DNA of 64,000 nucleotides, from contig CAJOOG010000078.1 of NCBI GenBank assembly GCA_905236045.1, forward strand, positions 36,099 to 100,098, read 5' to 3'. Below, piece by piece: positions 5,698-28,411 of this stretch; the first letter of the stretch is position 1, and each line of letters opens with the position of its first letter. Source of the stretch: an uncultured Denitrobacterium sp. Lineage in GTDB: Bacteria > Actinomycetota > Coriobacteriia > Coriobacteriales > Eggerthellaceae. The notes under the pieces were generated by a model. That model did not search any database. It was not told the origin of the DNA and saw only the letters and a list, made by a program, of their open reading frames with translations. The position numbers were made by a program, and so were the translations under genes.

Positions 5698-5707
5698 GGG
5701 GCAGGGC

Positions 5708-6812: not shown

Positions 6813-6886
6813 GTCTAACACGGGAAACCTCCTACTGGATAAAGGGAACATTATGGCTGCGTTTCCTGCGCACAAGAGTATAGCCC

Positions 6887-9277: not shown

Positions 9278-10975
9278 TTAATCGGTGGTGTAGATGGTGC
9301 GGTTCACTTCATCGACGGTGGTCGTTCCCTGCAGCACGAGCTCGCGGGCGTTGTGGATGATGGGCTGGAATCCGGCGGCGGCCACGGCGCGCTGCAGCTC
9401 CGAGCGGGGCGCCTGGTGGTGGATGGCCTGCGCCATGGCCCGATCGACGACGAGCGCCTCTGCCACGACGATTCGCCCGCGGTATCCGCTGTCGAAGCAT
9501 TCCGAGCAGCCGGTGCCGCGGTAGAACTTCACGCCCTCCGCCTTCGCCTTCTCCGGGTCCATACCGAGTGCCTGCAGCTCTTCGGTATCGGGCTCGTAGG
9601 GTTCGCGGCAGTGCGGGCAGATGCGGCGGACCAGGCGCTGCGATATGATGCCCTTCAGGGCCGTGGCCAGCATATAGGGCTCGATGTCCATGTCGGAGAG
9701 GCGATCGAGCGTGGAGAGCGCGTCGCCGGTGTGCAGGGTGGAGAGCACCAGGTGGCCCGTCACGGCGGCGCGCATGGCGATCTTCGCCGTCTCGTTGTCG
9801 CGGATCTCGCCGACCGAGACGATGTCGGGGTCCTGACGCAGGATGGAGCGCAGGCCGCTTGCGAACGTCATGCCGGTCTTCTCGTTCACCTGCACCTGGT
9901 TGACGCCGGGGATATTGTACTCGACGGGGTCCTCGAGTGTGACGATGTTCACGGCCTCGGTGTTCAGCTGGTTGATCATGGTGAAGAGGGTGGAGGACTT
10001 GCCGCTGCCGGTGGGGCCCACCAGCAGGATGACGCCCTGCGTGTTTTCGAGCAGGCTCTGGTAGACCTCCAGGTTGTGGCCGTAGAAGCCCAGCTCCTCG
10101 GGGGTGTCCTGCTTGGCATCGCGGTCGAGGATCCTCAGCACGATCTTCTCCCCGTGGACGGTGGGCAGGGTGGAGGTGCGCAGGTCGGCCTCGTGCATGC
10201 GCACGCGCACGATGGTGCGGCCGTCTTGCGGTATACGCCGTTCGGTCACGTCCATGTTGCACATGATCTTGATGCGCGAGGTAACCGATTGCTGCAGTTC
10301 CTTGGGGATGGTGAGCGCGTCGTGGAGCATGCCGTCGATGCGCATGCGGACGTTGACGATGTCGTCCTGCGGCTCGATGTGGATGTCGGAGGCGTGCTCG
10401 GAGATGCCGCGCTCGATGATGTTGTCGACCAGGCGGATGGAGGGCGCGGCGTTCTCCGATTCCGTGAGGTCGCTGGTCTGCGTGCCCACGTAATCGGAGC
10501 CGGACGCGCCCTCCTGCTGCATCTCGCGGATGGCGCGCTTCGCGCCCTCGGTGCCGTAGAGCGTCGAGATGGCATGGTCGACGCCGCTCTGCGTTGCGAT
10601 CATGGGGATGACGTGGCGATGCGTTGCCGAGCGGACCTCTTCGATGGCGAAGAAGTTCAGCGGGTCGACCATGGCCAGATAGAGGTCGTCGCCGAGCTTG
10701 CGCACCGGCACGACGGAGTACTTCTTGACGATGTTCTTCGAGAGGACCTGGGTCATCTCGGGTTCGATCTCGTAATCGGACAGGTCGATGTACTCGATGC
10801 CGAGCTGCATGGTGAGTGCGTCGATGAGCTGGCGTTCGGTGATGATGCCCGTCTGGATGAGCTCGTCTCCCAAACGCCGCTTGCTCTCCTTCTGGGTCTT
10901 GAGGGCTTGCCCCAGCTGTTCATCGCTGATGACGCCCACATCGACCAAGAGGTCGCCCAGTCGCATGTACTTCAT
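9278..10975 (-). CDS. pilB: Type IV pilus extension ATPase PilB (GspE family) with an N-terminal MshEN domain
   Basis: True start is MKYMRLGDLL at 10975; the track ORF extends to 11713 over the giant gene. Walker A GPTGSGKSST, DPDIVSVGEIRD, TGHLVLSTLHT, tetracysteine CPHC...CSEC. 565 aa. Confidence 0.9.
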   Translation of the reverse strand: MKYMRLGDLLVDVGVISDEQLGQALKTQKESKRRLGDELIQTGIITERQLIDALTMQLGIEYIDLSDYEIEPEMTQVLSKNIVKKYSVVPVRKLGDDLYLAMVDPLNFFAIEEVRSATHRHVIPMIATQSGVDHAISTLYGTEGAKRAIREMQQEGASGSDYVGTQTSDLTESENAAPSIRLVDNIIERGISEHASDIHIEPQDDIVNVRMRIDGMLHDALTIPKELQQSVTSRIKIMCNMDVTERRIPQDGRTIVRVRMHEADLRTSTLPTVHGEKIVLRILDRDAKQDTPEELGFYGHNLEVYQSLLENTQGVILLVGPTGSGKSSTLFTMINQLNTEAVNIVTLEDPVEYNIPGVNQVQVNEKTGMTFASGLRSILRQDPDIVSVGEIRDNETAKIAMRAAVTGHLVLSTLHTGDALSTLDRLSDMDIEPYMLATALKGIISQRLVRRICPHCREPYEPDTEELQALGMDPEKAKAEGVKFYRGTGCSECFDSGYRGRIVVAEALVVDRAMAQAIHHQAPRSELQRAVAAAGFQPIIHNARELVLQGTTTVDEVNRTIYTTD

Positions 10976-11016: not shown

Positions 11017-14000
11017 CTACTGCGGTTCCGATGATGCCTGCGCGGAGACGCTCGCCCCGTTCTCGTCTATCGCGAGCACGTACCACCATCCCGCGCTCCC
11101 GTTGGTCGCGGTCCCGTCGGGGTAGCCGGTCTCGTGCAGGTAGTAGGTGCCGTAGGGCAGCTCGCCGATCCAGAAGGCGCCGTTGGTGTACGAGACGACG
11201 CCGGAGGCCGCCACCGTGCGGTCGTAGCGCAGGATGTCGAAGGTCGCGCCCTCGAGCGGGGCGAAGACGTCGTCGATCTTCCTCAGGATGACGCGATGCG
11301 TGCCCTGCGGGTTGTTCAGGATGCCGTGCTCGGCGATGTCGGGCGCCTCGGATACCGCGTTCGGGCCGTTCATCTGCTGGATGGCGAATTCCCTGCTCGT
11401 GTCCAGCCCGAGCGAGGCCATGCGCGACCTGCCCACGACGACGCGGTAGGTGTTGCCGTTGTTCGCATAGCCCTCGGCGGCGGCGACTTCTTTGAGGTAG
11501 AATACGCCGTTCGGCGCGCGGAACGCGACGTTGCAGCCGGTTTCGTCGTCGAAGGTGCCGGTGGACGGCACCGTGGTGGTGGAGATGTTCTCGCTCTTCA
11601 CGTTTACGGGAATCGTGCAGTCGTAGTCGCGGTAGAGGGTGAAGGTCGCGCCGCCGAGTGCGTATCCGTTGCTGTCGGTCTTCTTGAAGAAGACGTCGCA
11701 GCCGTTGCCCCAATAGACGTAGGAGGCGTTGGCGCCGCGTACGCCTGTGAAATACTGTCCTGTGTCGTTGCCGGCCGTCTCGTCGTCACGCGCGTCGCGG
11801 AAAACCTCGAGCGTGCTGTCGTCGACGACCACGCCGGTGCCGATGGTGGCGAACTGCGTGTCGTTGGCGTAGTGGTTGGAGGTCTCGGCCCAGACCCAGA
11901 TGGAGCCCGGGTTGAGCGAGAGATTGCCCGAGATGACGATAGATTTCACGGGGTCGACGCTGCTCTTCAGGTAGATGTCCTGAAGCGGGGAGAGGTAGGC
12001 CTCGCCGCCGTTGGTCTTGCCGGTGAAATCGGCGATGTCGGCCACGTTGTCGGAGAAGTTGGGCCGGTCGCGCAGCGAGATGGTGCTGGTGGTGGAGGCC
12101 AGGTAGAAGCCCGCCCCGTTACCCGAGCAGCTGTTCGCGCTGATGGCGGGATTGCCCGAGAGCTCCACGGAAGCGTAGTCGTAGATGAAGGCCGCGCCGC
12201 CGTTGCCGGAGGCCTGGCAGCCCGTGATGGCGGCGATATCCTGCATGGCCAGCTTGGAGCCGCTGGCGGCGTACACGCCGCCGCCGTTCGCCGCCGAGCA
12301 ATTCTCTATGACCGATTCGCGCTGCATCGTGAGCTCGGCGCCGCCCGCCAGGTAGACTGCACCGCCTCGTCCGGTGCAGGTGGAGTTTCGCAGCGTCGCG
12401 TTGATGCCCAAATAGACCGACGAGCCGGTGCTCGCGTAGATGACGCCGCCGTCGCCCGAAGCGGAAAGCGGCGCGGCCAGCTGGTTCCCGCCGTCGAGGA
12501 CGAGGTTCTGCACCGCCAGCTCCACGGCGGCCCCCACGGTGAGCATCGAGGCGCTGGTCCTGCCGCGCATGATGGTGCAGCGGGAGGAGGTGGCGTTCTC
12601 GGGATAATCATCTTCGTTCGGGCCGGCGGCGGCCGTGGTTATAACGGCGTTCTTCAGGAGCTTGGGCGTATCGGAGTTGATGGTGTAGGACGTGATGAGC
12701 ATCTGGATCTGGGAGGGCTCGACCTCCACGCCGTATCGGTCCTGGAAGGAGAGCGTGTTGAATGCCGCGATGGCGCCCTCGAGCGAGTCGAACAGGGCCG
12801 ACTGGCGGTTAGAGCCGTTGTCGAAGGTGAGCACGTTGCCCGACGAGTCGGTGATCTTGCAGACCGGAGGCGCGTACCAAATGATCTGGTACGGCGCTTC
12901 GGCCGTGGACGCCGGGTTGATTTTGCCGTGCATGCGCCCGTCGTCGGAGACGAACAGGCTCGCATCCGTGCGGTAGGCTTGGTCGGCCAGGCCGAACTGG
13001 GTCATACTCGGTCCGGGATTGCACACGCCGATGTGCCCCGTGGTCCCGGAGCCGGGCGAGGTCAGGTTGCTCAGCAGGCTCACGCTGGTGGTGCGGTTCT
13101 GGTCGACGTTGTTGACGCGTGCCGTGATGAGTCGCACGTTGGATTGCGATCCGTCGCTGGTCGTGTTGTCGTAGACCGTGATGGTGTCGGTTTCGGCGTC
13201 GCCGCCGAGGACCAGGGTGGCATTTGCGCGGTTCTGGTCCAGGTAGACGCCGGCGCCGTTGGCGACCGTGGCGGTGGAGAGGCGGTTGCCCGTCACCGAG
13301 GTGCCGTTCTTCAGCACCAGATTGCCGTTCGACCAGAAGTAGATGCCGCCGCCCGTCGTGGCCGTGTTGTCGGAGACGGTGCAGCCGTCGAAGGTGGTCG
13401 GCTGATTGTCCAGGCACCACTGCGCATAGCCGCCGCCTTTGCCGCCCGCCGTGCATCCGTCTATGTTCACCCCGGTGAGCGTGGCCATCGCGCGGGCGCT
13501 GTAGATGCCGCCGCCGTTGGTGGCGGCCGTGCAGTCGGAGAGGACGGTGTTATCGATGGTCAGCGTCTTGGCGGTAGCGTAGATGCCGCCGCCTTCCGCC
13601 CTGGTGCTCTGGCAACCCGAAAGGTTGCAGTTCCGGACCATCAGGATAGTGTCGGCGTTGGCGTTGTTGTTGGCGATGCCGCCGCCCGCGCTCGCCGAGC
13701 AAGCCACGGTCCGCGTGCCCTCCAGAGTGGAGAAGGAGCACGTATCGACGATCGTCTGCTTGGCGTTGCTGCAGATGCCGCCGCCGTAGCAGGCGTTGGC
13801 GGTAGCGACGGCTTCGCAGCCTGTGAACGTGCTGTTCTTCACGCTGACGATGGAGTAGTTGCCGCTGCTCTCCGACCAGAGGGAGAGTGCCCCGCCATTG
13901 CTCGTGGAGGAGCACTCGGAGAAGCTGCAGTCGGAGATGTCCACGTTGCGGGCCTGAACCTCGCCCGCTCCGCCCGAATATGCGCCGCTGCTGCCTGCGT

Positions 14001-17000
14001 GGCAGTCGGTGAAGGTGCACTCGGAGACCGTGGCGGTCGTGCCTTCGTAGTTGACTCCCAGCTGCAGGACGGCGCCGCACTTCTGGGTGGCCGTGCATCC
14101 GTCGAAGGCGTCGTTGTTCAACGTCAGATCGCGCGCACGGGTCTGGAGGGCCCCGGCCTGGCCCGCGACGGCCGCGCATTGCGCGAAGGTCGTGTTCTCT
14201 ACGGTGAGCATGCTGCCCTCGGAGGAGTTGGTCGACACGAGTCCGCCGCCGAGGTTCTTAGCCTGGCACGATGCGAAGCTGCCGTCGGTGACGGTGACGA
14301 CGGGGGCATCGGTTTGCACGCCTCCTCCCGAATTGAGCAGGGAAGCGCAGGAGGTGAAGCCGCAATCGGCGATCGTGGTCGTTGCGGCCGCGTTAGAGTT
14401 GAGGTGCAAGACTGCGCCGCCCTGGGCGTTCGAGGTGCAGTTCTCGAAGGTGCTCTCCTCTATCGAGAGCGTGCGGGCGGCCACCTTCATGGCACCGCCG
14501 CCGCTGTTATTGCCACCCGTCGCCGTGCACGCCGTGCAGTTGGAGAAGCTCGTGTTTCTCACGGTGACGAAGTCATCTTCCGCGGTGCGGGTCTGAAACA
14601 CCGTGCCGCCGTCGCCAGATGCGTGGCAATCGTCGAAGCTGCTGCCCTCGATGAGCAGCGCGGGCGCCTCTTCGCGTAGGGCGCCGCCCGTGCCCTTCGT
14701 AGAGGTGCAGCTGGCGAACGTGCAGTTCTCGATGGTACCGGAAGCATCGTTTTGGGTGATGTTGTGATAGATGGCGCCGCCCGACAACAGGGCGTTGCAG
14801 TTCGTGAAGGAGGAGTTCGTCAGGGCGATGTCTCGGGTGAACGTCCGTATCGCGCCGCCGCATTCGCTGCCCGCCGTGCAGTCGGAGAAGGCCGTGTCCG
14901 TAACGGTTAGGGAGCTGCCGACGGTGGCGTTGCTCAGATACAGCGCACCGCCCCCTTGCGTGGCGGTGCAGTTTGCGAACTGCGTCCGCTCGATAGTGCC
15001 GTCAAGCACATTGGAGGAGAGGGCTCCGCCGTTGCGGGAGCTGTTCAGCGTGGAGCAGGTATCGAAGGTCGCGTCGGAGATGCGCAGGGTGGATCCCGTC
15101 GGAGTGCCCGGACCGAAGTAGATGGCGCCGCCGTCGTTTTTCGACGTGCAATGCGAGAAGCTCATGGCGTTCGCATCGGAGTTCTCGATTACCAGGGCGT
15201 GGGAAAGGGCGTAGATGGCTCCCGCCGCGCCCACGGAGCTCCGGCAGTTCTCGAACGTGCAGCCGCGCACCGTGGTGAGGGAGTCGGTTTGCTTGTTGTC
15301 GCAGGCCAGCCCGCCGCCCATGGGCGCGAAGCAATCGATGTCCTCGGCGCTCGCGCCGGTTTGCTCCTCGGCGGAGAGGGTTTTGAAGTCGGTGTTCTCG
15401 ACGGTTGTCTCCTTGGCGGTGCTGAATATGCCGCCGCCGCGTTTGGCGCTGTTGGTGCTATTCACCCGGCATCCTTTGAACGAGCAGTTGCCAATCGAGA
15501 CGGTCGTGTCCTGGGCCCCGTTCACGTTGTCGGCCGCCCAGAACACGAGGGCGCCGCCATCGGAGACCGACACGCAGTTCTCGAACGTGCTGTCCTTCAC
15601 GACCACATCCCAGGCGTCCGATTCGAGTGCGCCGGCTGCGCCATCGCTGCCGCCCGCGGCGCAATCCTTGAAATGCGAGTTCTCTATCGTGCAGGTGGAT
15701 CCCTCGTTGTAGTTCCAGTGGAACACGGAGCCGCCCTGTTTGCCGCTGCGGCAGCGTTCGAAGGCGCTATCGACGATGCTCAGGTCGTTGGCTATCGTCA
15801 GCACGACGCTGGATTCCTTATCGTTGGTGCTGGTGGATTCGCAGTCGGTGAGCGTGACGGACTTGATGCCGGTTTGGGAGTTCGCCGAATTGTTCTTGTG
15901 GAAGATGGCTGCGCCGCTGCGGGCCGAGGTGCAGTTCAGGAAGCGGATCGCATCGCCTTCCATCGTCACCTTCTCGGCTACGGTGGCCACGCCGCCGCCG
16001 CCGATGCTGTTGCTCTTTCCGCCTTCGTTTCCGACCGTTGTCTTGCAGGAGAGGAACGAGCCGTTGGCGAGCGTCATCTCGGAGCCCGATTCGCTGTTGT
16101 TGTGGAACACGCCGCCGCCCAGGCGCCCTGCCGAGCACTCTTCGAAGGTGTTGCCTTGCAGATCCGGCTTCTGCGCGGTGGTGATGATGCCGCCGCCGCT
16201 GCGCAGGGCCGTGCAGGAGGTGAAGGTCGAATCGTGCAGCTCGAAGTCGGAGCCGGTCGACCAGATGCCGCCGCCGCCGTTTTCGTTGCGGTCGTTCGCG
16301 ACCGAGACGCATTCCTGGAAGGAGGCTCCCGTGATGTTGATGCTGCAGTCCTGCGCCCACAGGCCGCCTCCGCTGTACGCGCGGCCCGAATGCAGCTCCA
16401 CGCCGGAATCGTCCAGGCCGGATTCGGTCTCCATGATGATGTCCGCGGTGCGGGCGTTCATGATGCCGCCATTGCTGTTGGCCGTGACGCTCACCCCGCC
16501 GATCGTCGCGGCGGTGTTGACCACCTGGGTGTCCGTGCCGTCGAAGGCGATGTTGCGCAGCACCATCTGCGTGTTGCCGTCGGCTTCGGACCCGACGACG
16601 GTGATAAGCGATTTCGCGTTGCCGCTGCCGCGAGTGATCGTGGCCTTCGTGTCCGATCCGCTGTAGGTGTAGGCGTGAGCGCTCTCGTCGGTCGAGGAGG
16701 TGGTCAGCGTGATCTTCTCGCCCGGCAGGATGGCTACGACGTCGACCGAGGGCACCGTGTAGTCGAGCAGCATCTCGATGGTGAAGGTCTTCCCCATGTT
16801 TTCGCGGCCCCAGTCGAGTGCGCTGTTGAGCGTGCGGAAGGGATGCTCGCCGCCGGAGCCGTCGATGATCTTGCAGATGTAGTCGCTTTCGTTGCTGACG
16901 GTGATCATCCACACGCCGCCGAGCTCCTCGTAGGCGTAGTGCACCGATCCGGCCGTTACGGGCTTGCCGCTGACCGCCGTCTCCTGGGCGTAGTATATGT

Positions 17001-20000
17001 AGCCCTCATCCAGGTTCTCGAGGGCCTTCACGCGGCTGCCTATTTCCTCTTCGAGCAGGTTGAAGCTGAGGGAGGGAACCTGCTCCACGTCGCTTTCCGC
17101 AAGCCCGAGCGCGGAATAATCGCCCTCCATGAAGGCGGCGAACTTGTCGGGGAAGTCGGCCTGGTGCAGGTAGGCGGAGATTTTGCTCTCCTCGATGCGA
17201 TAGACATCGTAGGAGGTCGTCTTGTTGGGCACCTCGGAGCCGGTGAGAACCTGATCGCCGAAGAGCCACTGCTTGGTCACGGCCACGCAATCGCGGGCGG
17301 TGTTGGTGATAGTGGCCTCTCCCGCGCCCTGGTCGTAGTCGTAGGTGGGGTTGTAGGCCGCGATCAGGTCCACGTCCGTAAGCGAGCGTGCCTCGCCGCC
17401 CGTCTCCCGGGCTCTGGTCTCGACCACGTAGTAATAGTAATCCGACGAGAGCTCCTCGATGGTCTGCGTTTCTCCCGCCGCTATGGTGAAGGTCCTCACC
17501 TTGGACGTCGTGACCCCTGGGAAGGCGCCGGTGAGCAGCGAGGGCAGCGTCTCGGCGCCCCAGTGCCCGTCCTTCGTGCCGTCCTGCGTCGTGTAGGTGA
17601 AGGTGACGTCGGGGTAGGCGCTATCGAACGAGAGCGGCCACCAGACGCTGGCATCGTCGATGCTGCCGGTGTTGCCGCTGGCATCGGGTGCTTGCGCCAG
17701 CACGTAGTAGGAGCCCTCCGTGCAGATGACATCTCCCATCTGCCAGCTGCCGTCCGCAAGGCGCGGAGTGCTGCCGTCGAGCGTGAATTCGCCACGATCG
17801 GCGTTGTAGGAGCGGTGGAACCGCACGAGCTTGCCCGCGGCCAGGTTGGACCCGATGCCGGCCTTCACCTGCGAGCCGCTGAGCGTCTGGCTTCCCACCT
17901 GGCAATACCAGCGGTTGCCGCCGCTTACCTGGAAGAACTGGCCTGTGGTGCTCAGCTCGACCATCTCGTCGTCGCCGAGGTCCGAGGAGTCGGCCCAAGG
18001 CGAGGGCGTGTTCTGCTGGCGCAGGCCCGCGGGCAAGTCGTTTACGCCGCCCACGTCTATTTTGGGGATGCGGTACAGGTCGTAGGTCGCCGTCAGGTCG
18101 GTTACGCCTGCGGGCAGAGTGGCATCCTTCGTGACGGTGAAGGCGGTATAGCGCTCGTAGTTGTAGACCGTGATCGTCTGCGTGCTCTTCGAGGCATCGT
18201 AGGCGTAGGGGCTGTCCCTGGTCGTTCCCACGTCTCCCGTGAAGGCGATTTTCTGCTTGAAGCCCTGCTCGACGGAGGCGAGGTCGCCATCCGCTTCGAC
18301 GACCCAGTAAGAGCTCGGATTGCCGTTCGTGTCGTACATGGCCAGCCCGTCGAAGGTGCAGGTCCATCCATTGGCCGCGGACAGGGTGGCGCTCAGCCCG
18401 CCCTCGTCGGTTCTGAATCCATAGTTGCCCAGATTCAGCGTGACGCTCACCTCGCCCGAGGAGGGCGCCTGGGACAGCTCCTCGTAGTGCTGGTCGAGCC
18501 ATTCCGCGTCGATTTCCAGGGTGAAGGTTTGGCCCCAGACGACGGTGTTCGCGAGCACGGTGCTGGCGGCGCCGAAGCGGCTCGAGCCTTCGCCGGCGCT
18601 GTTCTGACGGATGCGGTCGTTCACGAAGGCGTCCAGATTCGCGTCGGCCCCCGTCTCGAAGGTGGCGAAGGGCTTGGCCGGTTTGCCGTGCGCGTCGTAG
18701 AGAATCGCGCCGTTGGGCACGTAGACGCCCACCTGGGCCTCGCTGCCCAGGCCCGCATCCACGATCGATATGACGTCGGAGGCATCGACATCCAGGCAGA
18801 TGTTGCGCTGATCGGAGCCGCTGGAGGGATGGTTGTCGTAGATGGTCACGTTTCCGCAGAGGGTTATGCGCGCGTTCGTGCCGCCCACGCCCACGGCGCC
18901 CCTCGCCTCGCTCGTGGCACTGGTGCCGGTCGTGGTGTTGTTGCTTACCGTGCCGCCGGTGAATGCGGCCGTGCCCCCGTTTTCCAGGTAGAGGGCTGCG
19001 CCGTTGGAGGCCTTGCCGTGCTGCAGGGTCGTGCCCTCGCCTACGTTCAGCGTGCCGCCTGCCGCCACGCGGAGCAGGCCTCCGTTACCCGTGGTGTTGG
19101 CGTACTGCACGTTGCCGAGCTTGCCGTCGAAAGTCACGTTCTCGAGGGAGAGCGTCCCCTCCACCAGGAAGAGGTCGCCGCCGTCGAAGCCGCGGGTTAT
19201 GGTGGCTGCGCCCTCGACGAGGGCGTCGGAGGCGGTTGTGATCGTGATGTCGTAGCCGGAGGGGATGGTGACGGTGCCGGTCTGCGGGACGGTGCAATCA
19301 TCGAGCATCTCGATGGTATCGGTGGTGGTGCCGCTCGCGACGAGCTGGGCGAGCGCCTCGCGCACGCTGGAGAAGGTCTGGCCCGTGCTCGCGATTCGGC
19401 AGACGATGCTGGAGCGGATGTTGGTCGTGGTCTGGCTGGCGCCGGCTACGTTCACGCTGTAGTAAACGTCGAAGCGGGTCGTCTCGTCGGTGCTCCTGTT
19501 GTTCTCCACTCGCCGGATGTTCTTCTCGACCGCATAGCAGGCGTTGCCGCTCGGCAGGTCGGCGATGGAGATCTGCCAATCGTCGGACTGGGCGATGCTG
19601 AAGAGCCCGGTCGTGGCGTCTGGATTCGCGTAACGCGCGACCTCGTAGCCCGCGGCACGCAGCTCCGCCGCCTTGCCCGCCGCGCCATCGCCGGTGAGCA
19701 CGATGCTGGTCGGGGCGCTCGCGTTGCTTCCCTTCCAGACCTCGTAGACCTCGAAGTCGCACACCAGCTGGTCGGGGTAGGCGTCGTCGCTCCATTGCTT
19801 TTGCAGCGAGAGGTCGGATGTCGCCGGGCTGAAGGCCACGACCACCTTGCCGGCCGTCGTCTCGAGCGTGCCCTTGGCGATGTTGCTCGTGTCGAGAAGG
19901 TCCGCGTCGGTGGGGGTACTGTGGACGACGGTGTAGCTGCCGTTCTCGTCGGCTCCGCTCGCGTCGCTTAGGTTCAGGAGGGAGACGCTTGCCACGTTGC

Positions 20001-22929
20001 TCGCGGTGGCGCCGGTCAAGGTGCCGGCGACCTCGAAGGACTGTTCCGCCGCTTGCAGGAGCACCAAGTGCGCGGTCGTGTCGGCGGCCACTTGCGTGTC
20101 GGCGTGCTTCGAGCCCGTGCCTCCGTCGAAGATTTTCAGGTCGCCGCCGTCTTCGGGCGCGAGGACGGCCACCTTGGAGGAGCCCCCGGCGGAGGCGGCC
20201 ACGTTGGCATAGTCGAAGGAACTGTCGTTCTCGAGGTCTAATCGGGCACTGTTCTTCGGCAGGTTCTCCGCGTAGACCAGGTAGATCGTGTCGACGTCGG
20301 CGAGCAGCTCGTCCGAGGAGCCCTCCGTCTCGCGGAACAGATAGCCGTCATCGGAATTCTTCAGCTGGAAGTCCTGCAGGCAGGCGCCCTCGCCCCTCGC
20401 CAGGTCCCCCGCCGTCGTCGTGTCGGCGGCGCCCAGGCCGTAGTACTGGAAGAAGCGCGTGCCCTCGATGGAGGCGTCCAGTCGGCTGGTTTCGAGCGCC
20501 TCGAACAGGTCGTCGGCATCGTGCCAGTCCGTGCTGTCTGCCTCGAAGGTCTTATCGGGCAGGGCCGCGGCGTCGAGCAGCGTCAGGTTGCCGGCTCCGT
20601 CGTCTTTCACCCAGCGCACCTTCAGCCGGTCGCTGTGGTAGTAGAGCTTCACTTCGTCGCCCAAGGCCACGCTCGTCCATTCCGTCTGGCTCGTGCTGGT
20701 CTTGTACAGCCAGGCGTGCGCGGTGGAGGAATAGCGCATGGCCGCGATTGGGGACTGCGTCCCCGAGCTGGTGGTGATGGTCGCATACCCGAGCTCCATG
20801 TTGTCGTAGAGCGCGTTCACGGCGCTGTTCTGCTCGGCGTAGGCGCGGCCCAAATCGGCCTCGCCGTAGGTCTTCTCCTGCTCGGAAGTCGGGACTAAGC
20901 TGCCCTGGCTGCCCGTTACCAGCGTGGCGGTCGAGGAGCTGCTGCCGGAGTAGGTGTAGGCGCTCACGTTCAGCGGGATGCGCCAGCCGGCGGTCAGGCG
21001 ATGGTTCTTGTTGTTGATGGTGTTCAGCGCGAGCACATCGCCCTGCTTGAAGGCCTCGTTGTTCTCGTTCAGCCAGCCGACGAACTCGTAGTCGTCGAGC
21101 GAGGGGTCGACCAGCGCGATGGTATAGGGCACTTCGTAGCCCAGCGTGTCCAGCCATTCGACCACGTTATCGGGCTGGTCGGGCACGCCCTCGGGGTAGT
21201 TGTAGTCGAAGGTGAGCGAGGCTGCCGAGGCGTTCGGCACGTAGAAGCGGATGCCGTAGGGGCCCTGCATGTCCAGCGTCGTCCTGTCGAGGAGGCTTTC
21301 CTTGTGCGTGGTTGCGGTGAAGGTGGACCCGTCGGAGCCGACGGAGAAAGTCCACGAGCCCTTGGGGACCACGTGCGTCTGGTCGGTAGCCGTCTGGCGA
21401 AGGGTGTAGGAGCTGCCCGCGGCGAACTTCGCGCCGCCGCAGCCGGCGGATTCCTCGTTCACGCGCGAGATGTAGAGCCTGCCGGTGGAGGTGGTGGTCC
21501 CGCTCCATACTTCCACGCCCGTGCTGTCGTTGGTCAGCGTGAGGGCGGCTCCTTCGATGGGCACGTCGCTCGTGGGGCTGTCGTCGCGCACGAACAGCTC
21601 GACGGCGGCCGTGGTGAAGGTGGCCGTGTAGGTCGCATTGCCGACGACTTCGGTCACCTCGGGGGTCCAGCCCACGAAGGTGTAGGTTTCCTCGGTGCCG
21701 GGATGGTAGGGCGTCGTGCCGTCGTAGGTGGGCAGCGTGCCGTATTCGACGGCGGTGTCGGTCTCCAGCACGGTGCCGTCTTCGTCTTGCCAGGTGATCG
21801 TGTAGAGGTCTTCATCCTGCGCTCGGAGTACGATCGCATAGAGCGAGAAGGCGCCCGGGGCATACTCCTCGGATTCAGCTGCTTGCCGATCGATGAGCGA
21901 GGCGGTTTCCGGCGAATCGCCTATCGCGTCCTCCGTATCTGTTACGCTGGCCTGTTCGTCTGGGGTCGCCGCGCCGTCCTGGGAGACGTCGGCTTGCGGC
22001 TCCACGATGCCGGCGAGGGCCACTTCGTCGAGGTCGCGCGTGATAAAGCGCAGCCTTGCCGTCTTGTTCTGGGCCGGCGTCTTGCCCGTCGTCTTGTCGA
22101 TCTTGTTGGTAAGGTCCTCGGTCGCAAGGGACTTCGGCGCCTTCCCGTCCTTCGTCACGCGGTTCTGTTCGAGCGCCAACGCATCGCGGGCCAGGGTGTC
22201 GTTCGCGACGAGCATGGTCGCCTGGCGCTTGTCGGCCGAAAGCGCGTCCGCGGCGTTCGTCTCTATCGTCACTTCGACGTTGGAAGTGGGTTGCACCGTC
22301 TTGCCATTCGCGGAAATCGCCAGGTCCAAGAACTTCGTGTACGAGACGCTCTCCTCGGCCTTGAGGCTCAAGACCTTCGCCGCGACGGCCGTCTGCTGGT
22401 CGTAGTTTTGGGCGCTGATGAAGCGCTCGGTGGGAAGCGGGCGGTCCTTGTAGGCGGGGTCGGCTTTCTCCTCGGCGGTTGGGGCCTTGTTCACCTCCAC
22501 GACGGAAAGCTCGGCGCCATCGGGGATGCCGGCCTTCTCGTCGTAGGCGATGGTTACGGCGAAGGAAGTGCCGTCGGCGGAACGCACCGTCTTTTTGAGG
22601 GTGGAGGTCTTGCTCGCGGACTTCGGGCTGGAAGAAGTGGAACTGCCGGTACCGGAAGAATCGGCTGAAGAGCCGGTCGTCTCCGACGAGCCTGCGTCCG
22701 CGGAGGTGGAAGTCGCTGTCGCAGACGAGGAGACGCTCGAGCTGGTCGCGCTCTGCGTGGCCTCCGTCTCGTCGGTGCCGAGGGGCGCGGCGAAGCTCGT
22801 GGAGTAATTCATGGTGGCGAGTACCAGGACGAGCAGCACGGAGATGCTCTTGCGCCCGAGCTCGTGCTTGCGCATCCGGTGCTTGCGGAGCTGGCCGCGA
22901 CGCAGTGTCGGGTTCTTTCGGTTTAGCAT
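11017..22929 (-). CDS. Giant secreted beta-helix protein (3,970 aa), candidate adhesin. Order: Sec signal, Ser/Thr-rich tract, InlB B-repeat-like modules, three right-handed beta-helix blocks (Pmp-like GGA/FxxC rungs), two C-terminal SpaA/Cna-B-type domains. No LPXTG and no TM anchor.
   Basis: The track ORF 11017..24084 is one open frame, but protein-like sequence starts at MLNRKNPTLRRGQLRKHRMRKHELGRKSISVLLVLVLATMNYSTSFA (ATG 22929), 2 nt after the stop of the upstream pilin gene. The C-terminus ...GWWYVLAIDENGASVSAQASSEPQ has no sorting signal. Confidence 0.85.
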   Translation of the reverse strand: MLNRKNPTLRRGQLRKHRMRKHELGRKSISVLLVLVLATMNYSTSFAAPLGTDETEATQSATSSSVSSSATATSTSADAGSSETTGSSADSSGTGSSTSSSPKSASKTSTLKKTVRSADGTSFAVTIAYDEKAGIPDGAELSVVEVNKAPTAEEKADPAYKDRPLPTERFISAQNYDQQTAVAAKVLSLKAEESVSYTKFLDLAISANGKTVQPTSNVEVTIETNAADALSADKRQATMLVANDTLARDALALEQNRVTKDGKAPKSLATEDLTNKIDKTTGKTPAQNKTARLRFITRDLDEVALAGIVEPQADVSQDGAATPDEQASVTDTEDAIGDSPETASLIDRQAAESEEYAPGAFSLYAIVLRAQDEDLYTITWQDEDGTVLETDTAVEYGTLPTYDGTTPYHPGTEETYTFVGWTPEVTEVVGNATYTATFTTAAVELFVRDDSPTSDVPIEGAALTLTNDSTGVEVWSGTTTSTGRLYISRVNEESAGCGGAKFAAGSSYTLRQTATDQTHVVPKGSWTFSVGSDGSTFTATTHKESLLDRTTLDMQGPYGIRFYVPNASAASLTFDYNYPEGVPDQPDNVVEWLDTLGYEVPYTIALVDPSLDDYEFVGWLNENNEAFKQGDVLALNTINNKNHRLTAGWRIPLNVSAYTYSGSSSSTATLVTGSQGSLVPTSEQEKTYGEADLGRAYAEQNSAVNALYDNMELGYATITTSSGTQSPIAAMRYSSTAHAWLYKTSTSQTEWTSVALGDEVKLYYHSDRLKVRWVKDDGAGNLTLLDAAALPDKTFEADSTDWHDADDLFEALETSRLDASIEGTRFFQYYGLGAADTTTAGDLARGEGACLQDFQLKNSDDGYLFRETEGSSDELLADVDTIYLVYAENLPKNSARLDLENDSSFDYANVAASAGGSSKVAVLAPEDGGDLKIFDGGTGSKHADTQVAADTTAHLVLLQAAEQSFEVAGTLTGATASNVASVSLLNLSDASGADENGSYTVVHSTPTDADLLDTSNIAKGTLETTAGKVVVAFSPATSDLSLQKQWSDDAYPDQLVCDFEVYEVWKGSNASAPTSIVLTGDGAAGKAAELRAAGYEVARYANPDATTGLFSIAQSDDWQISIADLPSGNACYAVEKNIRRVENNRSTDETTRFDVYYSVNVAGASQTTTNIRSSIVCRIASTGQTFSSVREALAQLVASGTTTDTIEMLDDCTVPQTGTVTIPSGYDITITTASDALVEGAATITRGFDGGDLFLVEGTLSLENVTFDGKLGNVQYANTTGNGGLLRVAAGGTLNVGEGTTLQHGKASNGAALYLENGGTAAFTGGTVSNNTTTGTSATSEARGAVGVGGTNARITLCGNVTIYDNHPSSGSDQRNICLDVDASDVISIVDAGLGSEAQVGVYVPNGAILYDAHGKPAKPFATFETGADANLDAFVNDRIRQNSAGEGSSRFGAASTVLANTVVWGQTFTLEIDAEWLDQHYEELSQAPSSGEVSVTLNLGNYGFRTDEGGLSATLSAANGWTCTFDGLAMYDTNGNPSSYWVVEADGDLASVEQGFKQKIAFTGDVGTTRDSPYAYDASKSTQTITVYNYERYTAFTVTKDATLPAGVTDLTATYDLYRIPKIDVGGVNDLPAGLRQQNTPSPWADSSDLGDDEMVELSTTGQFFQVSGGNRWYCQVGSQTLSGSQVKAGIGSNLAAGKLVRFHRSYNADRGEFTLDGSTPRLADGSWQMGDVICTEGSYYVLAQAPDASGNTGSIDDASVWWPLSFDSAYPDVTFTYTTQDGTKDGHWGAETLPSLLTGAFPGVTTSKVRTFTIAAGETQTIEELSSDYYYYVVETRARETGGEARSLTDVDLIAAYNPTYDYDQGAGEATITNTARDCVAVTKQWLFGDQVLTGSEVPNKTTSYDVYRIEESKISAYLHQADFPDKFAAFMEGDYSALGLAESDVEQVPSLSFNLLEEEIGSRVKALENLDEGYIYYAQETAVSGKPVTAGSVHYAYEELGGVWMITVSNESDYICKIIDGSGGEHPFRTLNSALDWGRENMGKTFTIEMLLDYTVPSVDVVAILPGEKITLTTSSTDESAHAYTYSGSDTKATITRGSGNAKSLITVVGSEADGNTQMVLRNIAFDGTDTQVVNTAATIGGVSVTANSNGGIMNARTADIIMETESGLDDSGVELHSGRAYSGGGLWAQDCSINITGASFQECVSVANDRNENGGGGIWSTGSDFELHDSTFTSCTALRSGGGIITTAQKPDLQGNTFEECSAGRLGGGVFHNNSESGSEMTLANGSFLSCKTTVGNEGGKSNSIGGGGVATVAEKVTMEGDAIRFLNCTSARSGAAIFHKNNSANSQTGIKSVTLTDCESTSTNDKESSVVLTIANDLSIVDSAFERCRSGKQGGSVFHWNYNEGSTCTIENSHFKDCAAGGSDGAAGALESDAWDVVVKDSTFENCVSVSDGGALVFWAADNVNGAQDTTVSIGNCSFKGCRVNSTNSAKRGGGIFSTAKETTVENTDFKTLSAEEQTGASAEDIDCFAPMGGGLACDNKQTDSLTTVRGCTFENCRSSVGAAGAIYALSHALVIENSDANAMSFSHCTSKNDGGAIYFGPGTPTGSTLRISDATFDTCSTLNSSRNGGALSSNVLDGTIERTQFANCTATQGGGALYLSNATVGSSLTVTDTAFSDCTAGSECGGAIRTFTRDIALTNSSFTNCNALLSGGAIYHNITQNDASGTIENCTFASCTSTKGTGGALREEAPALLIEGSSFDDCHASGDGGTVFQTRTAEDDFVTVRNTSFSNCTACTATGGNNSGGGAMKVAARTLSIEESTFENCTSNAQGGAVLHLNSNAAATTTIADCGFTSCASLLNSGGGVQTDAPVVTVTDGSFASCQAKNLGGGLVSTNSSEGSMLTVENTTFAQCAAVAGQAGALQTRARDLTLNNDAFDGCTATQKCGAVLQLGVNYEGTTATVSECTFTDCHAGSSGAYSGGAGEVQARNVDISDCSFSECSSTSNGGALSLWSESSGNYSIVSVKNSTFTGCEAVATANACYGGGICSNAKQTIVDTCSFSTLEGTRTVACSASAGGGIANNNANADTILMVRNCNLSGCQSTRAEGGGIYATAKTLTIDNTVLSDCTAATNGGGIYSARAMATLTGVNIDGCTAGGKGGGYAQWCLDNQPTTFDGCTVSDNTATTGGGIYFWSNGNLVLKNGTSVTGNRLSTATVANGAGVYLDQNRANATLVLGGDAETDTITVYDNTTSDGSQSNVRLITARVNNVDQNRTTSVSLLSNLTSPGSGTTGHIGVCNPGPSMTQFGLADQAYRTDASLFVSDDGRMHGKINPASTAEAPYQIIWYAPPVCKITDSSGNVLTFDNGSNRQSALFDSLEGAIAAFNTLSFQDRYGVEVEPSQIQMLITSYTINSDTPKLLKNAVITTAAAGPNEDDYPENATSSRCTIMRGRTSASMLTVGAAVELAVQNLVLDGGNQLAAPLSASGDGGVIYASTGSSVYLGINATLRNSTCTGRGGAVYLAGGAELTMQRESVIENCSAANGGGVYAASGSKLAMQDIAAITGCQASGNGGAAFIYDYASVELSGNPAISANSCSGNGAGFYLASTTSTISLRDRPNFSDNVADIADFTGKTNGGEAYLSPLQDIYLKSSVDPVKSIVISGNLSLNPGSIWVWAETSNHYANDTQFATIGTGVVVDDSTLEVFRDARDDETAGNDTGQYFTGVRGANASYVYWGNGCDVFFKKTDSNGYALGGATFTLYRDYDCTIPVNVKSENISTTTVPSTGTFDDETGCNVAFRAPNGVFYLKEVAAAEGYANNGNTYRVVVGRSRMASLGLDTSREFAIQQMNGPNAVSEAPDIAEHGILNNPQGTHRVILRKIDDVFAPLEGATFDILRYDRTVAASGVVSYTNGAFWIGELPYGTYYLHETGYPDGTATNGSAGWWYVLAIDENGASVSAQASSEPQ
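13330..16345 (-). repeat. Protein-level repeat array inside the giant ORF: roughly 30 consecutive beta-helix rungs with F-x-x-C-(T/S/A) and GG(A/G)(I/L/V)
   Basis: Examples: SFQECVSV..GGGGIW, TFTSCTAL..GGGII, TFENCRSS..AGAIY, FSHCTSKNDGGAIY, TFENCTSNAQGGAV, SFSECSSTSNGGAL, LSDCTAATNGGGIY, TFDGCTVS..GGGIY. Boundaries are approximate. Confidence 0.7.
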
Positions 22930-22931
22930 GG

Positions 22932-25304
22932 CTAACCCCTCACATTCACGACGAGGGTTTCCACTGTCGGCCAGTCGCCGTAGTGCGCCTGCGCATGGGC
23001 CGGCAGCGAAGCGGCCGTCTGCTCGTCGGCGAGCACGGACACGACGGGGTAGGGGTAGCCGCCCCGGTAACGCGACATGACGACGCTGTCGTAGGGGTAG
23101 GCTGTGTGGGAGCCGCCGAAGAACGCCGCGTAGCTCTCCAGGTCCGCATCGGCGGCTGTTGCCGTACCCGATCCCGAGCCGACGACGGGTAGGTCTTCGT
23201 TCGCGGTTTTCAGGTAGCGGCAGTCCTGCAGCGAGGCGGAGGAGATGCCTGCAAGGGCGCCCGCGTGTCCCGTGTCGCCCATCGTCAGGCCTATGGCGTA
23301 GCAGTTCGCGAAGCTTCCTCCCGAAGCGGCGCCCGCAAGGCCGCCGGCGGTCGAGCCCGAGGCCGAACAGGTCGAGTAGCACGCCTTTATCGCGGTGCTC
23401 GCCGACGCGCCCACAAGGCCGCCGGCCGTGCTGCCCGCGATTACGTTCATGCGGCCCTTCACATCGGCGTCGGTGGTTTCCCGGTAGGAGCCCTCGGAAG
23501 TGTGGCCGCCAGAGTAGCAGTTCGCGATGGAGGCGGAGGATGCGGAGCCTGCTAGCCCGCCTGCGGTATCGCCCGCGCGGACGTAGAGGGCTGCCGTGCA
23601 GTTGTTCATGCTGCCGCCGGAGAGCGTGCCCACCAGCCCGCCGGCCGTGCCCGATGCGGAGATCTCGTAGGCGGCATCGTCGCCGCTCGCCGGCCCGTTG
23701 ATGGCCAGGAGGTTGGAGAGGGAGGTGCCCCAGGCGCTGCCGGCGAGCGCACCGGCGTCGCCCGCCTGGGCTTTCACCTTGAAGTTCACGAGCGCGAGGT
23801 TCTGGACGCTGCCTGCGTCCATGCTGCCGAAAAGCCCCGCCGTGTCCGAGCTCGCGTCGATGGAGATGTCGTAGATGCAGTGGTCGAGCCCGTCGTAGTC
23901 GAGCGCATAGCCCGGTGTGGCCGAAAGGAAGGTGCCCTCCGGCGTGGGATTGCCAGTGCCGTCGTAGACCCTCACCGCATCGGCGTTGCTGGAAGCGGCT
24001 GCGACTTCCTCGTCGGACATGGCCGCGACCTGGGCGTCCGTTAGATGCACGCTGAGGGCGATCGCCTTGCGGAAATCGGTCCACGAAAGGTCGACTTCCT
24101 GTTCGGCATCGGTCGCGGGGAGGACGGACACGTCATCGTAGGAGAAGCTCGAGATGCCGGTCGAGAGGTTTTCCAGATGGCGGATGTCCGCTATCTTGGC
24201 CGTTCCTTCCGAGAGGGACGCGAACAGGCTGTTGCGCTGCACTTTCTGGCTCCGCGCGACGTTCGTGAGCGCCTGGGTGCTGAAGGCCACGGCCTGGACT
24301 TGCACGTCCTCGCCGGGGATGAGCCCGCTCGGCCCGAAGATGTCGGCGAAGTGCCCGCCCGCCTCCGTCACGTCGTCGAGGTAGACGTAGAAGGTGCGCG
24401 AGTCGCTGCTTTCCACCTTGTCGAACAGGCGCGAGCCTCCCGCAACGTTGCCGCTTTGCGCCGCGCCGTTCTTCACGAGCTGGATGACCTTGCTCTTTCC
24501 GCTCGTCACGCCCGTGACGACGAGGTTGAGGGAGGGCGCGGCGGTCGAGGTCGGGCCCAGGTCGTGGTTCGGGTCGGCGACGATGGCCATCAGCCGTTCG
24601 GCGTTCTCCACCGTGAGGTTGGGCGCTTCGAGCGCCTCTCCCGAGGCGGCATCGAGTCCGTCTCCGCCGTAGTAGCCGACCATGACCGTGCCGTTAACGC
24701 CGGCGTAGCTCCGGCGGGCGTCTTTCTTGTCGTCGCCCGTGTAGCCGGGGTTCTCGAACAGGAGCGTCTCGTCGCCCGAGGCGAACGAGAAGCCGCTCGG
24801 CCCTGGGAAGGGGAAGGTGTTCATGGACGGGTTCACGTAGAACACGCCCAGCACGGCGGCGTTCTTCAAGTCGTATTCGATTACGTAGGTGCCCTCGGTG
24901 CGCACTGTCTCGTCGAGGGAGCCGAAGGGCAGCATCTCGTAGAGCACGCTGGTCCGCGCGGCGGCCTTCGTCTGGTCGAGGCGGTCGTCGTGCGGCGCTA
25001 CGGCGAAGTAGTAGATTCCGTCGGCCGAGGCGCTGTCGCCCTTGCCGGTTTTCCGTTCGAGAAGGTTCTGCGACTCGGCCGCCGTCAGGTGGTTCTGCGC
25101 GGCGATGTAGATCTCCTTGGCCGTGCCGTCGAGCTCGGCTTGCTGCGCATTGCGGTGAATCTGGATGATGGTCGCGAAGGCGAGCGCGGATACGATGCCG
25201 ATGATGGCGATGACCGCGAGCAGTTCCGTGAGCGTGAAGCCGGAGGTGGAGCGCCTGCGGGGGGTGCTTGTCCGTCGTTCGTTTTCGTATTTCGTCTCGT
25301 TCAT
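22932..25304 (-). CDS. Large modular minor pilin (790 aa): prepilin-type N-terminus plus a C-terminal GLUG-motif repeat domain
   Basis: MNETKYENERRTSTPRRRSTSG|FTLTELLAVIAIIGIVSALAF. The C-terminal half has IRHLENL followed by repeated GLFG/GALAG/GGLVG/GGLAG units separated by NC(Y/T) (about 23222-23850), and ends ...HYGDWPTVETLVVNVRG. Confidence 0.85.
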   Translation of the reverse strand: MNETKYENERRTSTPRRRSTSGFTLTELLAVIAIIGIVSALAFATIIQIHRNAQQAELDGTAKEIYIAAQNHLTAAESQNLLERKTGKGDSASADGIYYFAVAPHDDRLDQTKAAARTSVLYEMLPFGSLDETVRTEGTYVIEYDLKNAAVLGVFYVNPSMNTFPFPGPSGFSFASGDETLLFENPGYTGDDKKDARRSYAGVNGTVMVGYYGGDGLDAASGEALEAPNLTVENAERLMAIVADPNHDLGPTSTAAPSLNLVVTGVTSGKSKVIQLVKNGAAQSGNVAGGSRLFDKVESSDSRTFYVYLDDVTEAGGHFADIFGPSGLIPGEDVQVQAVAFSTQALTNVARSQKVQRNSLFASLSEGTAKIADIRHLENLSTGISSFSYDDVSVLPATDAEQEVDLSWTDFRKAIALSVHLTDAQVAAMSDEEVAAASSNADAVRVYDGTGNPTPEGTFLSATPGYALDYDGLDHCIYDISIDASSDTAGLFGSMDAGSVQNLALVNFKVKAQAGDAGALAGSAWGTSLSNLLAINGPASGDDAAYEISASGTAGGLVGTLSGGSMNNCTAALYVRAGDTAGGLAGSASSASIANCYSGGHTSEGSYRETTDADVKGRMNVIAGSTAGGLVGASASTAIKACYSTCSASGSTAGGLAGAASGGSFANCYAIGLTMGDTGHAGALAGISSASLQDCRYLKTANEDLPVVGSGSGTATAADADLESYAAFFGGSHTAYPYDSVVMSRYRGGYPYPVVSVLADEQTAASLPAHAQAHYGDWPTVETLVVNVRG

Positions 25305-28342: not shown

Positions 28343-28411
28343 TTGCCCGTTCCTCCTTCGTCAAACTATACTTTCGAGAGTTTAGCATTGCCGTCGCCGA
28401 GGAAGCCGATC

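Follow-up and report, generated by a model that had tools for sequence, protein, structure and literature searches.

The tip of a pilus determines what a bacterium holds on to. Two solutions for the tip are known: small modules grafted on a pilin and, in diderm bacteria, a PilY1-type protein that plugs into the tip complex. A 64,000-nucleotide stretch of DNA from an uncultured Denitrobacterium sp. (hereafter the window) raises the question of why a secreted protein of 3,970 residues without a recognizable wall anchor is encoded in the middle of a type IV pilus gene cluster. A sequence-only reading of the window had suggested joint production of this giant with the minor pilins, and its display on the pilus as a tip adhesin of the PilY1/PilC kind. 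Our analysis makes it likely that the type IV pilus carries the giant as a non-pilin cargo, which is probably an adhesin. The papers searched contain no description of such a pilus-linked giant arrangement.

Results

Gene organization of the locus

The giant gene occupies positions 11017..22929 on the minus strand. Its stop-to-stop ORF (11017-24084, minus strand) is 1,155 nt longer than the frame read from the proposed start. The start codon at 22929 (ATG) is served by a GAGGGG ribosome-binding site, and the protein begins with a typical Sec signal peptide that ends in SISVLLVLVLATMNYSTSFA/AP (slash, predicted cleavage). The ORF translation, the ribosome-binding site and the signal peptide as read from the letters confirm the 3,970-aa, minus-strand protein with a Sec signal that had been called earlier. 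Public collections contain an identical protein, encoded on a 119-kb contig.

The giant sits between four pilin-like genes and the pilB-pilT-pilC-major pilin genes, with spacers of 2 nt and 41 nt, all on the minus strand. The first pilin-like gene (26307..27182) encodes a 291-aa protein with a hydrophobic N-terminus and no Gly-1/Glu5 signature; its homologues take the first place in the pilin sets of loci L002, L003 and L009 and of nearly all of L012-L091. The other three upstream proteins carry class III signatures (G/ETLTE, G/FTLTE and G/FTLTE). They are a 141-aa minor pilin (25885..26310; motif RG/ETLTEV), a 193-aa minor pilin (25301..25882; AAG/FTLTE; Pfam N_methyl, TIGR02532) whose position is conserved in related loci, and a 790-aa modular minor pilin (22932..25304; SG/FTLTE; Pfam N_methyl and Glug). 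The 790-aa pilin consists of a long alpha-1 helix, a pilin head, Ig-like domains and a GLUG beta-helix, with a conserved C-terminal HYGDWPxxE motif. Its AF2 model has a pLDDT of 89.1 and a pTM of 0.85, and among its Foldseek matches the IgA1 proteases of S. pneumoniae (E = 5e-5) and G. haemolysans (3e-4) rank best, with low TM-scores.

The tight chaining of these genes, already remarked upon in the sequence-only reading, is borne out by the ORF coordinates and translations: the pilin-like genes are joined by ATGA overlaps and a 2-nt gap, and another 2 nt separate the stop of the 790-aa gene from the giant's ATG. The giant's stop TAG (11019-11017) is followed by 41 nt with a GGGAAGG and then by the pilB ATG at 10975. 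No terminator-like site was found on the minus strand between the giant and pilB. A promoter-like site, TTGAAA-16-GATAAT (27286..27313, minus strand), lies ~100 nt upstream of the first pilin-like gene; it has 10 of 12 consensus matches and is a consensus match only.

The pilus machinery in the window is complete, including PilT. By Pfam, the minus strand encodes the PilB extension ATPase (T2SSE and MshEN; 9278..10975), a PilT-type retraction ATPase (8218..9267) and the PilC platform protein with two T2SSF domains (6930..8159). These are followed by the major pilin (6426..6875, minus strand; KG/FTLMEM), whose likely start is Met 6812 and which has a promoter-like site at 6905-6877. The convergent pilD (peptidase A24), pilM, pilN and pilO genes are on the plus strand (3165..6328). 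YfhO, GT2 and YdjC genes are further neighbours. The window PilB is 59% identical to the PilB adjoining the related module in L009.

Domain organization of the giant

All features of the giant are given on the minus strand. The predicted signal peptide (residues 1-47, cleavage SFA/AP; 22789..22929) has counterparts of like kind in the relatives P0278, P0279, L014, L054 and L077. It is followed by a Ser/Thr-rich linker (residues 52-105; 22615..22776), and a fused relative of 4,232 aa, P0285, has a long low-complexity stretch at the corresponding position, between its pilin part and the N-terminal domain. The N-terminal Ig-like domain (about residues 110-320; 21970..22602) contains the motif TIAYDEKAGIPDGAELSVVEV and has 167 relatives by HMMER; in fused relatives, no other folded domain stands between it and the pilin. 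A region of InlB/Listeria-Bacteroides B-repeats comes next (residues 376-649; 20983..21804). The repeat at residues 376-426 has a sub-threshold Pfam Flg_new match and ~60% identity to PF09479/PF18998 proteins, and a second one, at about residues 571-649, was recognized by eye only. A search with residues 110-1170 was dominated by B-repeat proteins and returned no orthologues.

The motif [VI]C[KRQ]I marks the beginning of each of three beta-helix blocks, at residues 1176, 2018 and 3356; blocks 1 and 2 are called as beta-helices from their sequence patterns. Block 1 (about residues 1176-1470; 18520..19404), which opens with VCRI, gives BLAST cross-matches to block 3 of homologues. Stalk domains separate it from block 2, namely Cna_B (residues 1477-1547) and DUF7601 (residues 1775-1877; together 17299..18501). 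The putative block 2 (about residues 2018-3340; 12910..16878) has 25 GG[AGS][ILVM] rungs and FxxC...GGAI repeats resembling Pmp repeats, and 52 Cys residues fall between residues 2011 and 3350; no Pfam match was found for residues 2000-3360. Block 3 (residues 3356-3740; 11710..12864), which opens with PVCKITD, is the best-conserved part of the giant family. The protein ends with two SpaA/CnaB-type domains (residues 3743-3965; 11035..11703), followed by 5 residues and the stop. These domains match Pfam SpaA twice (E = 9e-23) and TIE, SpaC, BcpA and SpyCatcher by Foldseek. A confident AF2 model (pLDDT 85.8), which covers the C-terminal 615 aa, consists of a beta-helix and two CnaB-like sandwiches. 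We had also considered that the last CnaB domain might be incomplete and capture a pilin strand like SpyCatcher, an idea that was dropped because the model has a complete sandwich with its final strand. For the giant as a whole, neither a PDB match by sequence (E <= 0.01) nor an NCBIfam family was found. The earlier domain claims thus hold for the Ser/Thr tract, the two SpaA/CnaB domains and the three beta-helix blocks, the third of them modelled; the B-repeat claim is upheld by one sub-threshold match and one repeat seen by eye.

The earlier observation that the giant has no anchor also stands. It lacks an LPXTG motif and a hydrophobic tail, and no wall-binding module is among its Pfam/NCBIfam matches. 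A cryptic anchor was looked for in the giant, in the C-termini of its family and in the window; no sortase motif, sorting signal or lipobox was found, and no sortase or LPXTG occurs anywhere in the window. All complete members of the giant family stop a few residues past the last SpaA domain, with short and poorly conserved C-terminal tails. An LPXTG-type tail is present only in the distant matches P0019 and P0025.

Linkage to the pilin set in relatives

To follow the locus in other genomes, the 790-aa pilin family (alignments A5 and A6) served as the probe in a survey that yielded 80 metagenome loci, 47 of them informative. The order 291-141-193-790 is kept in the 80 loci. The giant adjoins, or is fused to, the 790-aa-type pilin in 44 of the 47: it lies directly upstream in 13, directly downstream in 9 and in one ORF with the pilin in 22. 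Among the three loci without an adjacent giant, L046 has one further upstream, past two inserted genes; the other two, L033 and L051, have none beside the pilin set. In an independent collection, all four further long contigs (P0153, P0206, P0167 and P0156) have the window order of four pilin genes and then the giant, which is 4,135-5,003 aa long and carries Flg_new, DUF7601 and SpaA. Since gene order differs among loci, this linkage of pilin and giant argues for selection on it.

Probing with the C-terminal module of the giant gave a consistent picture in L002, L003 and L009, in each of which the giant is immediately followed by the same pilin set. PilB follows the pilin set in L009, and the L003 module lacks pilB. 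The full-length homologue in L007 is 34% identical over 3,883 aa. The giant family itself is too divergent for locus scans with alignments A1 and A2, a three-sequence alignment retrieved 5 loci only, and a species-genome scan with the single protein found nothing. The sequence-only reading had asked whether a giant travels with the minor pilins in related genomes, and named a scattering of homologues away from pilus genes as an argument against its proposal. The giant does travel with the four-pilin set in the 44 loci and the four further contigs, and its homologues do not show such a scattering; some distant ones (L008, L010, L011 and L005) have no pilin genes within 10 kb downstream.

Fusion to the fourth pilin

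The fused ORFs of the 22 loci encode proteins of 1,200-3,655 aa. In the largest, L056, a pilin at residues 20-759 is followed by a giant-like stretch that matches two separate giants collinearly at 33-35% identity, the one in L054 from its residue 59 onwards and the one in L014 from its residue 78. P0285 has a GFTMMEM motif, pilin homology at residues 9-771 (E = 9e-116), a window-type N-domain at residues 888-1071 and beta-helix blocks. Its giant part belongs to the same subtype as the giant in the window. At the fusion point, the pilin C-terminus continues into the mature N-terminus of the giant.

This arrangement bears on which end of a separate giant may hold the pilus. The sequence-only reading had put the C-terminal ~250 aa first and the N-terminal region second; the fusions speak for the latter, as they set the N-terminal end of the giant beside the pilin. 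The C-terminal module is the best conserved and is retained in the fused forms, suggesting that either end may hold the pilus in the split form. The N-terminal TVSYD-type domain was rejected as a dedicated docking domain because LPXTG-anchored proteins have it as well, in tandem. A PilY1-like C-terminal plug was considered as well; the giant tails are short and variable, and are retained in the fused forms.

Discussion

Linkage and fusion (22 loci and P0285) support the proposal of joint production with the minor pilins and of carriage by the pilus. The more specific proposal of a PilY1/PilC-like tip adhesin is supported in its cargo part by the same evidence, and the adhesin role is suggested by domain types, namely beta-helix, B-repeats and CnaB. 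We propose that the giant, the four minor pilins and pilB would be on one transcript. The giant would be exported via Sec, lose its signal peptide and join a priming complex of the four minor pilins on the outer face of the membrane, docking non-covalently in the split form, with its N-terminal end beside the C-terminus of the 790-aa pilin. Polymerization of the major pilin by PilB would lift it through the wall on the tip of the filament, where it could function in adhesion, and PilT may pull on whatever it has bound. With the pilus as its anchor, a SpaA/CnaB surface protein could dispense with LPXTG and sortase. It speaks against this proposal that a tip cargo of ~400 kDa that crosses a thick wall is, to our knowledge, without precedent.

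Is the giant a substrate rather than a passenger? The pilus genes could be the Gram-positive counterpart of type II secretion. The four minor pilins would then prime a short pseudopilus that drives the folded giant across the peptidoglycan and sets it free. In C. perfringens the pilin PilA3 is required for secretion of the 70-kDa BsaC, and folded proteins larger than about 25 kDa are argued to be blocked by peptidoglycan (PMC11580942). The cleavable Sec signal, the lack of an anchor and the position of the giant inside the operon, just before pilB, would fit such a role. However, the giant is covalently fused to a pilin in so many relatives, which implies retention and not release, and both PilT and a normal major pilin are part of the cluster, so that we regard secretion as unlikely. 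We know of no type II substrate that is fused to a pseudopilin.

Slightly less credible still is an independent adhesin or matrix protein, secreted or loosely wall-associated, that is merely co-regulated with the pilus, a relation suggested for the tapirins next to the Caldicellulosiruptor pilus locus, and has no physical link to the filament. The N-domain and CnaB domains are generic surface-protein modules, some distant homologues have no pilin genes nearby, and tapirins, which are beta-helix cellulose binders, are encoded beside a type IV pilus locus (bioRxiv 10.1101/359786). Co-regulation, however, accounts neither for the repeated fusion to one particular pilin nor for a linkage that is to the four minor pilins and not to machinery genes, as in the L003 module. 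The Pfam/NCBIfam searches gave the giant no wall-binding module of its own. A high-GC artefact or a decayed pseudogene without a functional product might be suspected in a window of 64% G+C with many long shadow ORFs, where the stop-to-stop frame extends well past the proposed start. It is refuted, for practical purposes completely, by the full-length homologue in L007, the 167 N-domain relatives, the Pfam domains, the confident C-terminal model and the identical public protein.

Returning to pilus cargo, we lean, by a small measure, towards a broader reading as well. The locus would be an exchangeable tip cassette of gut and rumen monoderms from two phyla, Bacillota (Lachnospiraceae, Oscillospiraceae and Christensenellales) and Actinomycetota (Coriobacteriia). 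It would comprise the four minor pilins and a passenger of 2,400-5,000 aa, which is either fused to the fourth pilin or a separate protein whose docking mechanism has no relation to the PilY1 plug. Giant adhesins would then have a retractable anchor in the pilus, which takes the place of sortase anchoring.

These data suggest a third and much larger tip solution in monoderms, with passengers of 400-550 kDa that are either separate from a dedicated modular pilin or joined to it in one protein. The lineages that carry such passengers are abundant in gut and rumen. If this is true, it becomes testable how a tip complex holds a non-pilin protein without a PilY1 domain, by which route so large a cargo crosses a thick wall, and whether PilT retraction puts giant adhesins under tension. 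It would also account for a whole class of CnaB-bearing giants without a wall anchor, and would provide a genomic rule for pilus cargo, which is to search beside the 291-141-193-790 pilin set.

Comparison with known systems

Several known groups of proteins invite comparison with the giant. Chlamydial Pmp repeats (PF02415) alternate GGA[ILV] and FxxN; block 2, with its 25 GG[AGS][ILVM] rungs, has FxxC instead of FxxN and no Pfam match. The TIE, SpaC and BcpA matches of its terminal domains relate it to sortase-anchored SpaA/CnaB proteins and pilins, from which it differs in lacking LPXTG, a membrane-spanning tail and a sortase in the window. Tapirins are far smaller than the giant and are encoded outside the minor-pilin operon; we know of none that is fused to a pilin. 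Those of Caldicellulosiruptor are likewise anchorless beta-helix surface proteins of Gram-positive bacteria beside a type IV pilus locus, for which a role in attachment was proposed (bioRxiv 10.1101/359786). No tapirin homology was seen in PDB sequence searches with the giant or among the best 50 Foldseek matches to its C-terminal module. Very long proteins with attachment domains are also described in Omnitrophota, where they are encoded beside type II secretion-like or type IV filament machinery, together with small genes for class III signal peptides. That phylum is diderm, and the proteins have other domains, including transmembrane and SecA-like regions; the parts of the report considered here mention neither a pilin fusion nor a defined minor-pilin set (bioRxiv 10.1101/2023.11.21.568195).

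A close parallel is with PilC/PilY1 of diderm type IVa pili and MshQ of the MSHA pilus, non-pilin proteins that are encoded after the minor pilins and dock on the tip complex, where they are thought to give the pilus its binding function (PMC13533445; bioRxiv 10.64898/2026.09.18.752573). Like them, the giant is large, is not a pilin, carries a Sec signal and has its gene in a minor-pilin operon. In contrast, it is unrelated to them and 3-5 times larger, its host is a monoderm and its gene lies before or after the pilins in different loci. The PilY1/PilC beta-propeller domain (PF05567/IPR008707) is not among its Pfam/NCBIfam matches, nor is it the fold of the modelled C-terminal 615 aa. PilY1 docks on PilK through a C-terminal beta-strand plug, its last 10-12 residues, whereas in the fused relatives it is the N-terminus of the giant that is joined to the pilin C-terminus.

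Modular pilins, such as PilB and PilC of S. sanguinis, CofB and CpaL/TadG, show grafted modules at the tip, where display is expected on steric grounds (PMC8179133). The 790-aa protein is a pilin of this kind, as are L056 and P0285, and in the fused relatives of 1,200-4,232 aa the giant is the grafted module. The separate giant differs in having no pilin module and a type I Sec signal peptide. Of the multi-domain architectures in a 2021 survey, the most extreme one highlighted is a protein of 860 residues with 12 copies of one motif, compared with 3,655-4,232 aa in the fused forms described here. If the cassette reading is true, the fused forms, which reach 4,232 aa, would exceed all known pilins in size by a wide margin.

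Results

The giant gene lies in a closely packed minus-strand array. A promoter-like site (27313-27286, minus strand; a consensus match only) is followed by four pilin-like genes encoding proteins of 291 aa (27182-26307), 141 aa (26310-25885), 193 aa (25882-25301) and 790 aa (25304-22932), then the giant (22929-11017), pilB (10975-9278), pilT (9267-8218), pilC (8159-6930) and the ORF of a 149-aa major pilin (6875-6426), all on the minus strand. The plus-strand genes pilD, pilM, pilN and pilO (3165-6328) converge on them. Class III motifs are present in the 141-, 193- and 790-aa proteins, and the 291-aa protein has a hydrophobic N-terminus only. ORF coordinates and sequence bore out the overlaps, 2-nt gaps and 41-nt spacer ahead of pilB described in the sequence-only reading, and a sequence scan of the window found no terminator-like site between the giant and pilB.

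Using the giant's C-terminal module as the first probe for linkage, we found that in the metagenome loci L002 and L003/L004 homologues of these four pilins come after the giant in unchanged order. The locus L009, from a Christensenellales MAG, has the order giant, four pilins and PilB, the last 59% identical to that of the window. A second probe, the 790-aa pilin with its family alignment A5, yielded 80 loci in a metagenome scan, almost all of which keep the order 291-141-193-790. When their flanks were classed against a panel of giants, the giant was fused to the pilin in 22 loci, directly upstream of the pilins in 13 and directly downstream in 9; three had no giant with both flanks visible, and the flanks of 33 were uninformative. 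The sequence-only reading had asked whether a giant always sits between the minor pilins and pilB. The giant adjoins or is fused to the minor pilins in 44 of the 47 informative loci, but the gene order varies, with the giant before the pilins in some loci, such as L009, and after them in others. In L046, one of the three exceptions, a giant lies further upstream, beyond two inserted genes. Four members of an independent collection (P0153, P0206, P0167 and P0156) likewise have a giant (4,135-5,003 aa, with Flg_new, DUF7601 and SpaA) after four pilin genes. Because L003 has the module without pilB nearby, the giant is linked to the minor pilins and not to the machinery.

Several neighbours of the module were also recorded. 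In two related loci, L033 and L051, pilD, pilM and pilO lie downstream of the four-pilin set, but neither flank contains a giant over 8-10 kb; upstream there is an HD-domain protein, and downstream a pilin-like protein of 257 aa. Where the giant is upstream, a conserved gene of ~430 aa follows the 790-type pilin (L020, 12296-13585; L048, 12716-14011; L028, L038 and L066), and its product is built from repeats (...DVRxxVAxNPN...) that resemble HEAT or LRR-variant repeats. In L002 (17799-22570) the giant-plus-pilin module precedes a D5_N/DUF5906 primase and serine recombinases, and PcfJ follows the giant in L006 (12594-14003). The module may be carried by mobile elements; such carriage would be consistent with its distribution over both Bacillota and Actinomycetota. 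An EAL-domain protein (Pfam) flanks it in L100 (4921-6858), and a 993-aa flanking protein in L031 (12380-15361) looks GGDEF/EAL-like by eye. These c-di-GMP-type neighbours hint at second-messenger control.

The fused loci relate the giant to one pilin. In 22 loci the ORF of the 790-type pilin reaches 1,200-3,655 aa. That of L056 (3,655 aa) consists of the pilin and a stretch collinear with the giants that L054 and L014 encode as separate proteins (33-35% identity); the match begins just past their signal peptides, and L015 has the same fusion point. A full HMMER search for relatives of the window's N-domain gave 167, the majority being anchorless giants of 3,000-5,900 aa. Among them, P0285 (4,232 aa) carries a class III motif and is homologous to the pilin over residues 9-771 (E = 9e-116); its residues 888-1071 form a window-type N-domain, and beta-helix blocks are also present. 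The short fused forms P0159 and P0162 comprise the pilin, B-repeat-like sequence and one SpaA domain. At every junction a low-complexity linker connects the conserved HYGDWPxxE end of the pilin to the first domain of the giant, so the giant's N-terminal end is pilin-proximal in fused forms.

This repeated covalent fusion to one pilin bears on two other explanations. The pilus genes could secrete the giant in a type II-like manner, an idea taken from PMC11580942, or the giant could merely be a co-regulated adhesin, as for tapirins (bioRxiv 10.1101/359786). Both fit the fusions poorly; we consider secretion unlikely and simple co-regulation slightly more so. The reading we favour as probable is that the giant is a non-pilin cargo of the pilus; its inferred steps are co-transcription, docking of the split giant, a tip location and adhesion.

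The AF2 model of the 790-aa pilin (52 relatives; pLDDT 89.1, pTM 0.85) predicts an N-terminal helix of 54 residues together with a head, Ig-like domains and a beta-helix, and Pfam detects a GLUG motif. The top Foldseek matches are IgA1 proteases of S. pneumoniae and G. haemolysans (E = 5e-5 and 3e-4, with low TM-scores). By the usage of PMC8179133, the protein counts as a modular pilin.

The giant starts at an ATG at 22929 after a GAGGGG site, with a Sec signal peptide whose predicted cleavage site is SFA|AP. A Ser/Thr-rich linker (residues 52-105) and an Ig-like N-domain (~residues 110-320, no Pfam match) are followed by B-repeats, which give a sub-threshold Flg_new match and are ~60% identical to PF09479/PF18998 proteins. 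A putative beta-helix block comes next, then Cna_B and DUF7601 domains (Pfam), a second putative block, Cys-rich, with 25 GGxI rungs in 1,300 residues and no Pfam match, a third block and two C-terminal SpaA/CnaB domains (Pfam, E = 9e-23). All three blocks start with the motif [VI]C[KRQ]I. The last 615 residues are predicted by AF2 to form a beta-helix and two sandwiches (pLDDT 85.8); for the sandwiches, Foldseek returned CnaB domains of TIE, SpaC, BcpA and SpyCatcher. Domain search and structure prediction, as proposed earlier, confirmed block 3 and the two terminal domains. The stop lies five residues past the last domain. As first read, the giant has neither LPXTG nor a hydrophobic tail; no sortase motif or sorting signal occurs in any frame of the window, and all complete relatives share the anchorless ending.

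The giant-type N-domain (xTVSYDxxAGIPxxAxLxVxE) is also found, as tandem copies, in many proteins with an LPXTG anchor (P0284, P0294, P0307, P0308 and others), several of which share the segment ...GDDDFWLYVDGELV.... The giant is two ORFs in L002 (3-12570) and L006 (1-12481), the second (1,002 and 826 aa, respectively) comprising beta-helix block 3 and the two SpaA domains. The conserved C-terminal module can therefore exist as a separate protein.

Ribosomal protein S11 encoded in the window groups at 90% identity with sequences of Eggerthellaceae and Enorma, so the DNA most likely comes from a member of the Coriobacteriia. Shadow ORFs are numerous in the window (G+C ~64%). The giant's stop-to-stop ORF (11017-24084) extends 1,155 nt beyond the real start, overlapping the 790-aa gene in another frame, and the opposite strand carries other long shadow ORFs (e.g. 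14956-19971, 1,671 aa). These are high-GC effects and could mislead gene callers. Directly upstream of the pilin operon (27455-32307, minus strand) are genes for a YdjC-family protein, a GT2 glycosyltransferase and a YfhO membrane protein of 980 aa, an observation that also covers L092; a Wzy_C (O-antigen-ligase-like) gene adjoins the major pilin in L097. The products of these genes could glycosylate the pilins, or the Ser/Thr linker of the giant.

Discussion

Literature searches on giant or modular pilins and on monoderm PilY1-like proteins gave no description of a four-pilin and giant module. The most extreme multi-domain case singled out in a 2021 survey of modular pilins is an 860-residue protein. 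The nearest parallel is the Omnitrophota giant genes beside type II-like loci (bioRxiv 10.1101/2023.11.21.568195). By the tests that define each group, the giant is not a PilY1, a modular pilin or an LPXTG protein. The closest precedents for its proposed mode of action are of two kinds: in PilC/PilY1 and MshQ the final residues of the protein contribute a strand to PilK (PMC13533445; bioRxiv 10.64898/2026.09.18.752573), and CpaL and GspK provide that strand in cis. Despite falling outside the definition of PilY1, the giant, by analogy, most likely works like it.
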